Positions 491 to 50,875 of a stretch of DNA of 64,000 nt are shown here, one piece after another. The stretch lies in NCBI GenBank assembly GCA_951406725.2, contig OX597822.1, positions 3,162,001-3,226,000 on the forward strand, given 5' to 3'. The notes beneath the pieces are model-generated. The model was not told the origin of the DNA, made no database searches, and saw only the letters and a program-made list of their open reading frames with translations. How positions within the stretch are numbered: position 1 is the stretch's first letter; the number at the start of each line of letters is the position of its first letter. Both the position numbers and the translations under genes were made by a program. Source of the stretch: Octopus vulgaris (taxonomy: Eukaryota).

Positions 491-714
491 TAAAATTATA
501 AATTAGGGGATCTATGAGATACCACCACGCTAAAAATAGCAGCCATGATCTGACTCTAAATCTCTAAAACCACCTTAATTGCCCATATATCAACACAGAG
601 AGAAAACAAAGAAACAAGATGAAACTAGTAAAAAATTAAGGTGGTTTTAGAGTCAGATCATGGCTGCTATTTTCAGCATGGTGGTATCTCGTAGATACCC
701 TAATTTATAATTTT
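491..714. mobile_element. Fold-back element next to (TA)n, related to the HHR/(TA)n element group
   Basis: Arms ~491-580 and ~633-714 are reverse complements; motif ggctgctattttcagc at 662-677; accct at 697-701 just before (TA)n; no intact HHR seen. Confidence 0.6.
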
Positions 715-1125
715 ATATATATATATATATATATATATATATATATATATATATATATATATATATATATATATACATATATATACACATACGTAAGTGT
801 AAAACGAAGTGGACAAATGTAGTACTTGAAGACAAAAGGTACTTACATAACACATAAAGCATACGTACATACATACACAGATACATACGTACATACATAC
901 ATTACATACATACATATATACATACATACATACATACACACATACATACACAGATATATACGTACATACATACATACATACATACATACATACATACACA
1001 CACACATACATACATACATACATACAAACATACATACATACATACATTCATACATACATACATACATACATCCATACATACATACATACATACATACATA
1101 CATACATACATACATACATACATGT
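715..1125. repeat. (TA)n and (CATA)n microsatellites
   Basis: Directly visible. Confidence 0.95.
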
Positions 1126-1199
1126 AAAGATATAAATTACAGAAAAACTATCCTTGTTTAATATCAGGTGAAATCTCTAATTTCAAGTGCTGCTGATTT

Positions 1200-2560
1200 T
1201 TGGTCCTATTTTTATCTTTATATTACTATGCAGGACCACACGCAGACTCTCTGGCAGTCACACTCTCACACCGTTAAAAAATGACCCTGAGATATATATT
1301 AATTACAAAAGATAAGAAAATTAACTTCGTGTGGCTAAACTGAAACTTCACATTCGTCATGTCAGGCGAGAAATCAACGCGTGGGATGAAAATTCTTGCT
1401 ATCTTATTGCAACATGTTATTTCTGCACGAAGAGTTTCTTTAACGATAAGCAGCGTTCAGTTACTAAGACTATTCTAGATTGAGGATATGAACTACCTGC
1501 ATAATTTAGCTAACATTCACTTTGAAATTATGAGACACATTCCGGATGGAATTGGCTCATATATGAATTTCACAGGAAGCTTTCAATCCACATTGTCATC
1601 ATATTAAAAAATAGAATTCTTCATATTTCCTATTTGAATTTATACCTATTTCTTATGCTATTTCATATTTGAATTTATTACACCTGCTACTACTTCTATT
1701 TCATATTTGAATTTATCCCTACATTTGTATTCCTCTGATATAAGAAGTAAAAACTGAAAAATGTGTTTGCTAAGTTTTAATGCGTCCTTATGCTTTGCAG
1801 CACGTAAAATCTTCCTGGACAACTAACTCATTGCTGGTATTGATTGAATCTCCAAAAATATTACTCACAATATCTATCTTTATTGTATTGATTCCTAATG
1901 GTGTGGGAAGCCCGGCATCATAAAATCCCTGTTTGTCTTGTTAAAGTTCCATTACCAATGCTTAAGATCCAACTGTTAAATTCTTTTGTCTATTTTGTCT
2001 AGCAGGAATCATATTGACTGTGAGATGGACTACTTCCACGCTTTTCGCTAATGGAAAAGTTTTTAATGAATGATTCTATTATGGTGACTTTAACGATTAA
2101 TTTGGCATCTGACGAAGGCCTTCACCAAGTACCAAGTAAAAATGTCTTTCTGCGAAAAAGGTGACCGGTCAACGCAATCTCTTTTATAAACTGGTCAATT
2201 AAACACTGTATATCACTTGATAAAGTAGAGACTTTCTCAATAATGATATGAGATATGTCATAAACACGCTGTGCACCATAGTATCATTTCTTCATTGATA
2301 AATTTGTTCCTATCACTGGAACGGAACTGGAAGCTTAAAGCCTTGGTGCGCAATTCGTCATTCTTTGAGCAAATCAACAGCTACTCTAGTTGTTACGAGA
2401 CAAAAAAAATCCGAACTTTCTTTGTATCGAGCGGATGAGTACGTTGTAAAGGTAGGTTTTTCTCCAGGTTCACCAGATCCGTCTTAGAAGAAAACTCCTT
2501 GTGTTTTTTGGCATTAATAGTGACCTGATTTATCTCAGAATCAGTATTTTGTATGGAATT
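1200..2560 (-). mobile_element. Degenerate Helitron PIF1-type helicase fragment
   Basis: Frameshifted minus-strand translations in the expected order: DGSGEPGxKTYLYNVL (Walker A-like), VAVDLLKE*RIAHQGFKLP, TFLLGEGLRQMP (GGDFRQILP-like), EFNSWILSIGNG, IFIPRVD. Confidence 0.75.
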
Positions 2561-2609
2561 AAGAGTATTCTTCCATTAGCATTTCATTGTTGCTTCAACG
2601 TATTTACTT

Positions 2610-2922
2610 GAGACGCATAACTAACTGGCAATCCGTCGGTTATGATGACGAGTGTTTCCGATGATCCGATCAACCGAACAGTCTACTTGGGAAATTCCGC
2701 AGACACGAGAACTTTTAACCTAGTTCTTAGGAAGAATTAACACAAAACATGAAAAGACTGGCTCTTTGAATAACAGGGACAATTCATTTTTGTCCAGCTG
2801 AATGCACCAGAACAACGTAAAATAAATGTCTTGCTCATGGACACAACATACCATCGAGAACTGAACTCATGAGTCTACGATCGTAAGTTGAATACTCTTA
2901 GCCACTTAGCCATACGCCTTCA
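2610..2922 (-). mobile_element. tRNA-derived SINE (family 3, head tgaaggcgYRtggct)
   Basis: Homologous to 54255-54580; A/B box-like head and gtgtccWtgagcaagaca body. Confidence 0.75.
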
Positions 2923-3289
2923 CGTTTAGGATCCATAATTAACTATTGGACATCAATCTGGTAGGCAAAATAGGGTACAATTAAAAGCAGAAAACTCTCT
3001 TGGGTAGAATCCTGAAAACTCTTCTATATATGTATTTGAATGCGTTTGATACCATTTTATAAGATCTTTTGGTTGGTTGAATGTCCATTTTTTGCATAGG
3101 TTTGTTTGCTTCATACGACATGGTTTGTCAACAACGCAGCTACTTCCAGACATCTCATCTATTCATTTCCTTTAGTAAGGTGCGTGTGAACTCCTAGAAA
3201 TTTCAAACGTTGGCACCGGGAGCATGCTTTTGTAATAGAAGATGAATTCGCTCAATGTCCCTGACAGAATAAATCCTTGGTATTACTTT

Positions 3290-3527
3290 AAGGCAACGAG
3301 CTGGCAGAGTCGTTAACACTCCGGACGAAATGCTTAGCGGTATTTCGTCTGTTGTTACGTTGTGAGTTCAAATTCCGCCGTGGTCGACTTTGCCTTTCAT
3401 CCTTTCGCGGTCGATAAATTAAGTACCAGTTGCGTACTGGGGTCGATGTAATCGACCTAATCTGTTTGTCTGTCCTTGTTTGTCCCCTCTATGTTTAGCC
3501 TCTTGTGGGTAGTAAAGGAATAGGAAT
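3290..3527 (+). mobile_element. tRNA-derived SINE (family 1, Nin/Deu-like core)
   Basis: aaggcaacgagctggcaga...gagttcaaattcc (B box)...gcctttcatcctttc...aagtacc; more than 10 copies in the window. Confidence 0.9.
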
Positions 3528-3924
3528 AATTTAATTTTCAGTTTTTCTTTCTTTCTTCCTTTCTTTTTCTGTTTTTTTTCCCTGTCGACCTGTCGCCTTC
3601 TTGGAATGGTATACACAACCGTTTCCTGATTTACCTAGCTGATGCGAAAAATAATCCACTACTTGTGATTTCCACCGGTGATAAAATTAACAAAAGCGTC
3701 GAAAAATAATTGTGAAAATATCTGTGAAACTTCTTGGTTGTTATCTAATATAATTAATATATTATAAATACTCGTATTCGCTGGCAATCAGAAATCACGG
3801 GTAGACAAAACTATACATCAACCATATTAGCGCCAGGCAGCTTCTGCCCTTCTATACACATAATGGAATATATATATATATATATATATATATATATATA
3901 TATATATATATATATATATATATC

Positions 3925-48600: not shown

Positions 48601-48796
48601 AAGATGCTTTGCGTATCAATAGCTGAAAAAACATAACGATGCAGAAACACGTGGCCTTCGGGTAATGTCATTCACAAACCTGTACGGGATTCTTTCGCAC
48701 ACAAAAAACATGAATGCTTTAAATTATACATGCATAACTTTTCATGCACATACACACACATCTATATATATATATATATATATATATATATATATA

Positions 48797-48940
48797 TATA
48801 AGGTTGTCCCAAAAGTTCGTAGAAAGTCTTGGAAAATAATGGTCTTTATTTTGAGGAATAATTTTGTTGTTTTTGTTAGTACTTGGCGAGTAAAAGTTCA
48901 ATTTTCGCAAGTGCTTACGAACTTTTGGGACAACCTAATA
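48797..48940. mobile_element. Mariner-type MITE
   Basis: TIRs aggttgtcccaaaagttcgta / tacgaacttttgggacaacct; TA context. Confidence 0.85.
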
Positions 48941-48944
48941 TAAG

Positions 48945-49318
48945 AATTAGAAAAAAAACCCACCTTTTATCAATTCAATTACACCTTCTACAAAATTACA
49001 TATAATAAAAAATATTAGAATTAAAATAACAATAATATACCGATGATTAAGTAAATTGCAAAATAATTATAAAAACGTATATATACCAAATATATACGTT
49101 TTATTATTATTTTGCAATTTACTTAATCATTAGTATATTATTGTTATTTTGATTTTAATATTTCAATTATATGTAATTTTCTAGATGGTGTAATTGAATT
49201 GATAAAAGGTGTTTTTTTTCTAATTTATATATATATATATATATTATATTTTGTTAAATTTGGTTTAGAATTTCTAAATTGAATTTTTCCCTGTAAGTTA
49301 GGAATAATATTCCCTCAT
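48945..49318. mobile_element. AT-rich palindrome plus conserved (TA)n-joined terminus
   Basis: Arms 48945-49086 / 49090-49227; terminus related to 44068-44115. Confidence 0.65.
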
Positions 49319-50107
49319 ATATATATATATATATATATATATATATATATATATATATATATATATATATATGTACTAGGAAATGGATGTGTTACGTTCA
49401 ATTAAATGAAAATATAAATAATATGTACACACATACACAAACACATGCGCACACACACACATATACATGAAATACGAAAACAAAAGAGTTGAATACATAA
49501 TCAACGAAAGAAACAAAGGAAAAACAGGACAAGTTAGATAAAGAATGACCCTTCATCTGTTGTCGGCCGTCCTTCTACTCCTCATTTCGAGCATTGAACA
49601 ACATGTTCGTATTTCATGTTGCTTACGGTTTGTGACGTCCTGTACCCATATATGCATATATATGTGTGTGTATGTGTGTACATATACAAATATATATATA
49701 TATATATATATATATATATATATATATATATACATGCTTATATATATATATGCTTATATATATTATTTATATTATATAATATATATATATTAATATTTAG
49801 CCAAAGCAGCAGAGTGGCTCTAGACAAAGAGTTTTGTGCGTAAGCGCAACAAAGTTTCATAAGTGTTAAACATTTGTTACGGATGTTGGCACGTTAACTG
49901 ACGAAATGATACTAAGCTTTCTGCTCGGCCTGCCACCGATTCTGCGGCATTCCGATTTATTAGAGCTATATATATATATATATATATATATATATATATA
50001 TATATATATATTTATATATATATACATATATACATACATATACATACACACACACACACACACACACACACACATATATATATATATATATATATGTGTA
50101 TGTATAT

Positions 50108-50300
50108 ATTCTAATCTAGGTAAAAGGCCCGAAGTTTTTGGGGAGGAGCCAGTCGATTAGTCGATTAGATCGACTCCAGTACGCAACTGGTACATAACTT
50201 ATCGACCCTGAAAGGATGAAATGCAAAGTTGATCTCGGTGACAGACGAAATACCGTTAAGCATTTCGCCCTGCATGCTAACGTTTCTGCCAGCTCCCCTT
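50108..50300 (-). mobile_element. SINE family 1 with internal deletion
   Basis: Homology to family 1 head and core. Confidence 0.85.
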
Positions 50301-50609
50301 ATATGTATATATATATATAATACAAAATGGAACAAGAACGCAAAACATCGGACAACTAGGTGATACAAAAAGGGACAACAAAACATCCGGATAAACGATA
50401 CAAAGAAAACATGGACGGGTCATTCACAGTTTTCTATCTTCAGTCAAGAACCAGATTATACTCGCAATTTCGGCTGATTATACTTGAGATTGCTCTAATC
50501 TGGCCAGCCCCAAGGAAAAACTAAGCTAACAGCATTAGATTCCTTGGAAGAAATCACCGAATGTCGAGAGAGAGAGAGAGAGAGAGAGAGAGAGAGAGAG
50601 AGAGAATAT

Positions 50610-50875
50610 GCACATGTTTGCTAGAAAGAAGCGTTAAAACTCTCTAAAGCCACGCATCTCTCACTATATGTAAACACGCTGATGATCTTTAAGTGCCATT
50701 CGGCACATAAAGTGAAATCGACTGATACTGGGATATCTATTCTTCTCTTTGTGGTTTTACAAATGGGGAGTACAGTTTCTTAGTATCTTTGCTACGTTCT
50801 TCGTGCGTGTTTACATATAGTGAGAAATTCATGGCTTTGGACAGTTTTAACTCTTCTTTCTAGCAAACAGGTGTA
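50610..50875 (+). mobile_element. Fold-back element with HHR remnant and shared motif
   Basis: Arms 50610-50679 / 50805-50875; CTGATGA-t-cttta-gtgcc/ggcac-taaag-t-GAAA-tcga at 50679-50722; motif at 50849-50864. Confidence 0.65.

Follow-up and report, generated by a model that had tools for sequence, protein, structure and literature searches.

Six non-coding elements in a 64,000-nt stretch of the Octopus vulgaris genome (contig OX597822.1 of assembly GCA_951406725.2, positions 3,162,001 to 3,226,000, hereafter the window) share a short motif near their 3' ends. In these elements, named A to F, the U-rich motif ending in YAG is followed by a GG...CC hairpin, a short AT-rich stretch and the element end, and this end module of a known class, the end-pieces of Penelope-like elements (PLEs), is apparently undescribed. 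We give a probability of roughly one half to the reading that the module is an RNA signal recognised by the reverse transcriptase of a partner autonomous PLE, with copying starting in or near the hairpin. All evidence on the motif comes from this one window and from six or seven families; two further families with hammerhead ribozymes were named G (362 bp) and H (about 210 bp). The DNA of the window is AT-rich (35% GC), with TA-type microsatellites, a family resembling short interspersed elements (SINEs), mariner remnants and fragments of long interspersed elements (LINEs).

The motif is real. Its 18-nt consensus, TTTRRCTGYTRTTTCTAG, gave 13 matches at up to three mismatches, compared with 0.92 +/- 0.90 expected from 100 dinucleotide shuffles. 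Eleven of them lie inside elements A to F, which are non-coding, (TA)n-inserted, tandem or inverted PLE end-pieces, and two (6067 and 24861) in simple-repeat-like DNA. With leave-one-out matrices, the held-out sites ranked at a background fraction of 3e-5 to 1.5e-4 (100,958 windows, other motif copies included). A first-pass annotation had located the motif as six 15-mers; all six were recovered on the plus strand at the same coordinates, and the TTT said usually to precede them is present in five of the six copies. Moreover, de novo motif discovery with one site per sequence in five families (A or B, C, D, E and F, so that A/B was counted once) returned the motif as the top 15-mer. Its score was matched by 0 of 150 shuffles with either A or B in the set, and by 0 of 100 GC-matched window sets with A and 1 of 100 with B. 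The six elements had been picked post hoc, with G and H left out, and when these two families were added to the search the motif lost its top rank. The motif stands 3' of the hammerhead in five of the seven hammerhead-bearing families, and its orientation is constant relative to the hammerhead and to the element end; F carries it without a hammerhead, as had been noted for the copy at 662. TTTCTA is conserved in 5/6 families and RRCT likewise in 5/6, most family pairs being otherwise unalignable, and a pyrimidine tract with YAG occurs in 12 of the 13 element copies, the exception being C, which ends in TAA. Among 100 flanks of up to 200 nt leading into (TA)n, TTCTAG was found ten times in sense and twice in antisense, a weak enrichment of non-independent sites, and only twice at 25–50 nt. 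Neither full-text searches with four motif words nor topic searches of the literature returned a description of the motif, with subscription journals, Repbase and the supplements of the 2026 preprint on retrozymes (bioRxiv 10.64898/2026.07.22.740005) outside the coverage of both.

The carriers belong to a recognisable class. Tandem or partial-tandem non-coding units are present in A (490 bp), B (479 bp), C (558 bp) and G (362 bp), an inverted 5'-truncated arm in A, B, D, E and F, and most elements end at (TA)n. Tandem non-coding units, inverted truncated copies and a (TA)n target are the features of a non-LTR retrozyme, or non-autonomous PLE derivative, and none of the open reading frames (ORFs) of the elements that were scanned with Pfam gave a match. 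The hammerheads belong to the minimal PLE type and have a palindromic helix III, the core of G being a U3-A8 variant (types as in PMC4209133). That of A has the full core and stems, and A alone matched Rfam RF00163 (22 bits, E 0.029, below the gathering score of 34); an Rfam hammerhead search of B, C and E gave no match, the core and stems of B, of E and of the inverted arm of D (D2) being recognised by manual inspection only. The core is swapped in C (TCGATGA), and in D it has decayed in the plus arm (17434) and is intact in the inverted one. A whole-window Rfam scan was dominated by microsatellite-miRNA matches. The summed depth of family A in DNA run X1, about 1 million against 33–55 for single contigs, is not a copy number and points to a very abundant family.

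A hairpin begins 2–15 nt past the motif in every family, and usually opens with GG and closes with CC followed by T. Folding of the 45 nt past the motif gave z values of -3.5 to -3.8 in A, -2.1 and -2.8 in B, -2.5 in D2, -2.6 in F2 and -1.7 in E2 (copies numbered as in Table 1). Between A and B, two G-C pairs of hairpin 1 are replaced by T-A, and two pairs of hairpin 2 are changed in the same compensatory way. The stem-loop is terminal: in A, B, D and F, although not in E1, the element ends about 10–15 nt past the hairpin. Additionally, A, B and C have a second CTAG and hairpin 48–56 nt before a second end. The left arms of A and B end after hairpin 1 and the right arms after hairpin 2, and a T-rich CTAG with a hairpin precedes both ends, an arrangement that by analogy resembles the 'tail' pattern of PLEs. 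Helitron 3' ends have a hairpin 5' of a terminal CTRR, beyond which host DNA begins. Such an end was considered here and rejected: along the strand of the hammerhead CTAG comes first and the hairpin second, and on the other strand the element continues past CTAG.

The position of the motif is fixed to the 3' end of the element and not to the hammerhead. The cut-to-motif distances given in the first-pass annotation were reproduced for A (77 nt), B (81 nt), C (107 nt) and D (97 nt), whereas that of E is 121 and not 126 nt, depending on the choice of the cut site. The constant spacing that had been read into them did not hold, as the distance from the cut to the AG is 92–136 nt, with a standard deviation (SD) of 16. 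From the AG to the alignable arm end it is 34–41 nt in seven of the eight arms that could be measured (SD 2.9, omitting the eighth arm, E1, at 15 nt, and counting as one of the seven the element at 48945–49225). One contig of run X15 leaves family A for (TA)n at 16442, 40 nt past the AG. The 362-bp family G has no clear copy, as had been stated, but a variant one base longer lies 29 nt from its end. A cis signal, as proposed in the annotation, is still the best reading of the motif; what ties it in place, however, is the downstream hairpin and the element end. As was overlooked in the annotation, the motif has the form of a typical 3' splice site as well, and in A and B a conserved GT stands 78 nt before it.

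The carriers had also been called otherwise unrelated, which fails for A and B because these are homologous even without the motif (alignment score 71 vs 31.7, z 7.7, 0/200 shuffles). Sharing of the motif is therefore partly a matter of common descent (A/B). With the motif removed, weaker similarity was found for C and D (1/200 shuffles) and for E and F (0/200) among 36 pairs tested, and most family pairs retained none.

If the module is a copying signal, the reverse transcriptase-endonuclease of an autonomous PLE would mobilise the retrozymes in trans: it would bind the U-rich motif and the hairpin in their RNA, and at a nicked (TA)n site it would begin copying from the hairpin or immediately beyond it. 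The motif would then be protein-bound, would act as RNA and would be kept by selection for being copied, much as SINEs retain the 3' tail of their partner LINE. Anchoring to the end (SD 2.9 vs 16 nt) counts for a copying signal, as do the hairpin behind the motif in each family, the compensatory pairs between A and B, and the CTAG with hairpin before both ends of these two, which match the two starts and the 'tail' of PAc (below). The conservation of TTTCTA and RRCT exceeds what is expected of a generic splice acceptor, and as both are kept in unalignable families without an ORF, while C keeps the motif without the AG, we prefer a copying signal to splicing alone. In the PLE PAc of the anole, where the hammerhead cuts at +26, reverse transcription starts in a stem-loop located 111–118 nt inside the ORF; the two starts, about 85–92 nt past the cut, correspond to the 'tail' (PMC11167929). 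Among Chlamys PLEs, the 3' ends of non-autonomous members are similar to those of their autonomous partners (PMC8557442).

Several observations weigh against a copying signal, beginning with the small base of a single 64-kb window and six or seven families. An autonomous PLE with the motif was not found within the window or in metagenome contigs, and a Pfam scan of 91 of the 120 ORFs of the window, the other 29 lying mostly in SINE-like and other repeat copies, returned no PLE domain. The motif is not universal, as families G and H insert at (TA)n without a clear copy. Its presence in truncated copies is what 3'-anchored copying would leave in any case and is no proof of selection. In D1, F1 and C folding of the hairpin is weak (z -0.1 to -1.0), and E1 lacks one, its arm ending only 15 nt past the motif. 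RNAalifold gave no common structure for a nine-sequence alignment; such a consensus fold fails because the stems differ in length. The copies in F vary between TAG and CAG, which fits a splice acceptor better than a CTAG-specific protein. Finally, the RNA requirement of PAc extends beyond the start site, and no such motif is described in the available text of that study (PMC11167929). As to the database contigs themselves, three metagenome hits with a hammerhead core and the motif were dismissed as chance, one lying inside a bacterial-type ORF, one inside a LINE reverse-transcriptase ORF and one in eukaryote-like DNA without a hammerhead fold. Viral contigs, used as chance controls, gave 53 motif matches, one of them with a loose hammerhead-like pattern upstream.

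The most serious alternative, which we regard as possible though doubtful, is that the motif has no role beyond that of 3' splice site for a 5'-untranslated-region (5'-UTR) intron of the pseudo-long terminal repeat (pLTR), kept in genomic copies. Its place near the end would follow from the start of the ORF and that of copying, both located immediately behind it. Such an intron in a PLE terminal repeat is known (PMC2377424, PMC3846280), with a length of 75 nt in Penelope (PMC2377424) and of 398 nt in Chlamys-3 (PMC8557442). The pyrimidine tract with YAG suits an acceptor, as does the TAG/CAG variation in F, and G|GTAAA stands exactly 78 nt upstream in both A and B, which are homologous. The longest runs of identity between the two lie at both borders of the 78-nt segment: TTTCTAG (7 nt), GGTAAA and GTTTTT (6 nt each). 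A donor scoring like that of A/B at 70–85 nt is present in 12% of background windows. Branch-like CTAAY words occur at -36 in B and at -52/-53 in D, and relatives in family H have a pyrimidine tract and AG past the hammerhead. However, TAA closes the motif of C, the repeats of this copy being 97% identical, and C, D, E and F have no shared donor distance, their best donors not exceeding background (a score of at least 7 in 38% of windows). The elements are non-coding, with no ORF to splice to, and RRCTG is left unexplained by an acceptor. In Penelope of D. virilis the intron end lies 5' of the hammerhead and not past it (PMC4209133). The three runs used here, which are guessed to be RNA, consist of assembled contigs. 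Among the splice joints listed for these contigs (15 of 27), none was from family A, and two X11 contigs run unspliced across the candidate donor; the acceptor was not bridged by 31 letters on both sides.

Both roles may be combined, with the motif serving as the 3' splice site of the pLTR intron and as part of the RNA element bound by the reverse transcriptase; we consider this unlikely, and its probability is counted within that of the copying signal. Splicing would then remove part of the copying signal, so that only unspliced RNA would be retrotransposed, while spliced RNA would serve as message. This would explain why PLEs, unlike other retroelements, keep introns, a retention the significance of which has been called unknown (PMC8557442). 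As a separate observation on the motif, a loose end of run X10 (four records, 16381–16397) carries many T-to-C changes over it, the pattern that A-to-I hyper-editing of an antisense transcript within double-stranded RNA would leave.

It is less likely still that the motif acts as DNA, either as a sequence within the element's own end that the GIY-YIG endonuclease recognises or as a core-promoter element of the next tandem unit. PLE endonucleases do make nicks in the pLTR region of their own element, and in Penelope there is an internal promoter, with regulatory sequence near the 34-bp tail (PMC11167929, PMC2377424). A nick at a set distance would also give a fixed distance to the end. Nevertheless, cleavage by PAc prefers a short ATT motif, and its ends map to the starts of reverse transcription (PMC11167929). 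No pile-up of molecule starts or ends was seen in the runs, although assembled contigs cannot show one. Nothing in the window speaks positively for a DNA-level role, and the covariation of the adjacent hairpins points to a single-stranded substrate.

We consider it improbable that the motif is without function, a relic of common descent that survives as the last part of a single ancestral pLTR that can still be aligned. The homology of A and B throughout, the weak similarity of C to D and of E to F, and the post hoc choice of the six elements would agree with this. Yet the motif was the top shared 15-mer with A/B counted once, and it stands out from neutral decay because most pairs show no similarity without it. 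A chance likeness of T-rich words, as might arise at 35% GC and as the single GC-matched set reaching the B-based score could suggest, is very improbable and is largely refuted by the match enrichment and the de novo shuffle tests, the strand moreover being always the same relative to the hammerhead and the end. The features are collected in Table 1.

Table 1. Elements, motif copies and associated features in the window (positions counted from its first letter).
Feature	Position	Strand	Remarks
Element F	490–716		Inverted pair of short 3' end-pieces; without hammerhead; right end at (TA)n
Motif copy F1	530–547	-	Ends TTTTTAG; 37 nt to alignable arm end
Motif copy F2	659–676	+	Ends TTTTCAG; hairpin 679–702 behind
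Element A	14980–16545		490-bp tandem units and inverted 5'-truncated copy; (TA)n on both sides
Motif copy A1	15017–15034	-	37 nt before left (TA)n end
Type I hammerhead of A	15724–15826	+	Further hammerheads at 16214–16316 (+) and on the - strand, core at 15199
Candidate 78-nt GT-AG intron of A	15835–15912	+	Putative; ends in motif
Motif copy A2	15895–15912	+	Followed by hairpin 15914–15942
Candidate 78-nt GT-AG intron, second A unit	16325–16402	+	Contains motif copy A3 (16385–16402)
Hairpin 1 of A	16404–16432	+	
Second module of A	16474–16545	+	T-rich CTAG, hairpin 2 (16494–16529), second end
Element D	16660–17495		Arms of this old inverted pair share 78% identity; - arm alone retains an intact hammerhead core (16854 to cut 16813)
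Motif copy D2	16702–16719	-	Followed by hairpin 16696–16678
Motif copy D1	17431–17448	+	
Element C	23329–23990	+	Partial tandem, 558-bp unit; hammerhead-like fold 23635–23691 with swapped core; hairpin 2 at 23930–23970
Motif copy C	23790–23807	+	Ends TAA, not AG; hairpin near 23822–23845
Element B	39083–39865		Inverted arm and partial tandem of 479-bp unit; homologous to A; hammerhead 39559–39625
Motif copy B1	39124–39141	-	41 nt to arm end
Partial motif copy	39231–39240	+	Internal junction of B
Candidate 78-nt GT-AG intron of B	39640–39717	+	Putative; motif copy B2 at 39700–39717
Hairpins of B	39722–39744; 39824–39854	+	Hairpin 1; hairpin 2
AT-rich inverted element	48945–49225		TTTTCTAG 41 nt before (TA)n; partial match; without clear hairpin or hammerhead
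Element E	50606–51047		Short inverted arm and direct arm from hammerhead core (50679); right end approximate
Motif copy E1	50621–50638	-	15 nt to arm end (exception)
Motif copy E2	50846–50863	+	Followed by hairpin 50869–50912

Some further observations concern the hammerheads and junctions of A and B. Among the common family-A variants in run X1, 16227 G>A extends stem II, and a change at 16310 turns the cleavage triplet GUC into GUA. A loose end of run X10 has a family-A helix III (16220–16310) that is different yet palindromic. In A only, the strand freed by cleavage pairs with the motif region (16311–16402, about 20 bp, -17.3 kcal/mol, 0/500 shuffles), a predicted pairing that could possibly form a conformational switch; as a general mechanism, pairing of the motif with the freed 5' strand was rejected, being absent in B, C, D1, D2 and E. 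At the inverted junction of B (39195–39240 and 39621–39652), both arms start 4 nt past the predicted cut, around a small palindrome, which suggests that a ribozyme-cleaved RNA was the template. The direct arm of B makes a forward jump of about 55 nt into the motif, not at the GT-AG boundaries.

Other repeats of the window resemble the motif carriers in part. Copies of family H, with a minimal hammerhead, lie at 17496–17605, 23095–23308, 32457–32655, 40919–41124 and 55600–55700; they have a pyrimidine tract and AG 20–30 nt past the cut, without the motif, and element D abuts a truncated copy. The tandem of family G is at 39890–40880 on the minus strand. AT-rich inverted elements at 48945–49225 and 44148–44601 have CTAATTT before (TA)n and no hammerhead, and similar words stand behind the hairpins of E and F; the first of the two is possibly a seventh carrier of the motif. 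The arms of an inverted element at 5426–5873 bear a shorter motif-like word (TCTAG or TCTAA) followed by a small hairpin; this element has a strong internal hairpin near 5685–5711, and no hammerhead was seen in it. Remnants of mariner (Mos1-type) transposases and of a LINE reverse transcriptase are located at 18546–18818, 29087–29299, 52146–53027 and 50850–51398, one mariner remnant having 41-bp inverted ends and the LINE remnant adjoining element E.

The module can be set beside known systems. As in the pLTR of PAc and canonical PLEs, a hammerhead lies about 90–140 nt before the end, a stem-loop stands at the end, there are two ends, the target is AT-rich, and tandem and inverted 5'-truncated copies occur (PMC11167929). 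Unlike PAc, the octopus elements have no ORF, and their two ends are about 105 nt apart in A/B compared with 30–40 nt; the available text on PAc describes no shared motif before the stem-loop (PMC11167929). Tandem copies, inverted 5'-truncated arms and (TA)n-type ends are the published layout of PLE insertions (PMC8557442) and of non-LTR retrozymes (bioRxiv 10.64898/2026.07.22.740005; PMC7229834). Animal non-LTR retrozymes, proposed to be non-autonomous PLE derivatives, likewise consist of non-coding tandem units with type I hammerheads (PMC7229834; bioRxiv 10.64898/2026.07.22.740005), and units of 362–558 bp fall within the range of 51–972 bp given in the preprint (bioRxiv 10.64898/2026.07.22.740005). 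The accessible parts of these two sources report no conserved end motif across families. The GT-AG segment in the terminal repeat (78 vs 75 nt) recalls D. virilis Penelope and Chlamys-3_cRei, whereas its place past the hammerhead, about 40 nt from the end, differs from both (PMC2377424, PMC8557442). The (TA)n target and the palindromic helix III are shared with Hydra-clade PLEs, including Hydra-1_Obim (Craig et al. 2021). Three of six consensus sequences of that clade, judged by eye, have a pyrimidine stretch, AG and a hairpin past the hammerhead near the end, with different letters, which is a lead only. In the accessible part of the supplement of Craig et al., the exact motif words did not occur in relevant positions, although words split between lines would be missed, and the window holds no protein evidence tying these families to the Hydra clade.

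The choice of template, the formation of the 'tail' and the keeping of introns are still open questions in the biology of PLEs. Should it turn out to be no more than a splice acceptor or a relic of descent, the motif would be an ordinary feature of PLE ends. As a combination of motif and hairpin common to divergent families, the module offers a target for mutagenesis in the study of template recognition. It may also serve as a tag that links a retrozyme to its autonomous partner, and it is possibly of use as a minimal handle in insertion tools built on PLEs.

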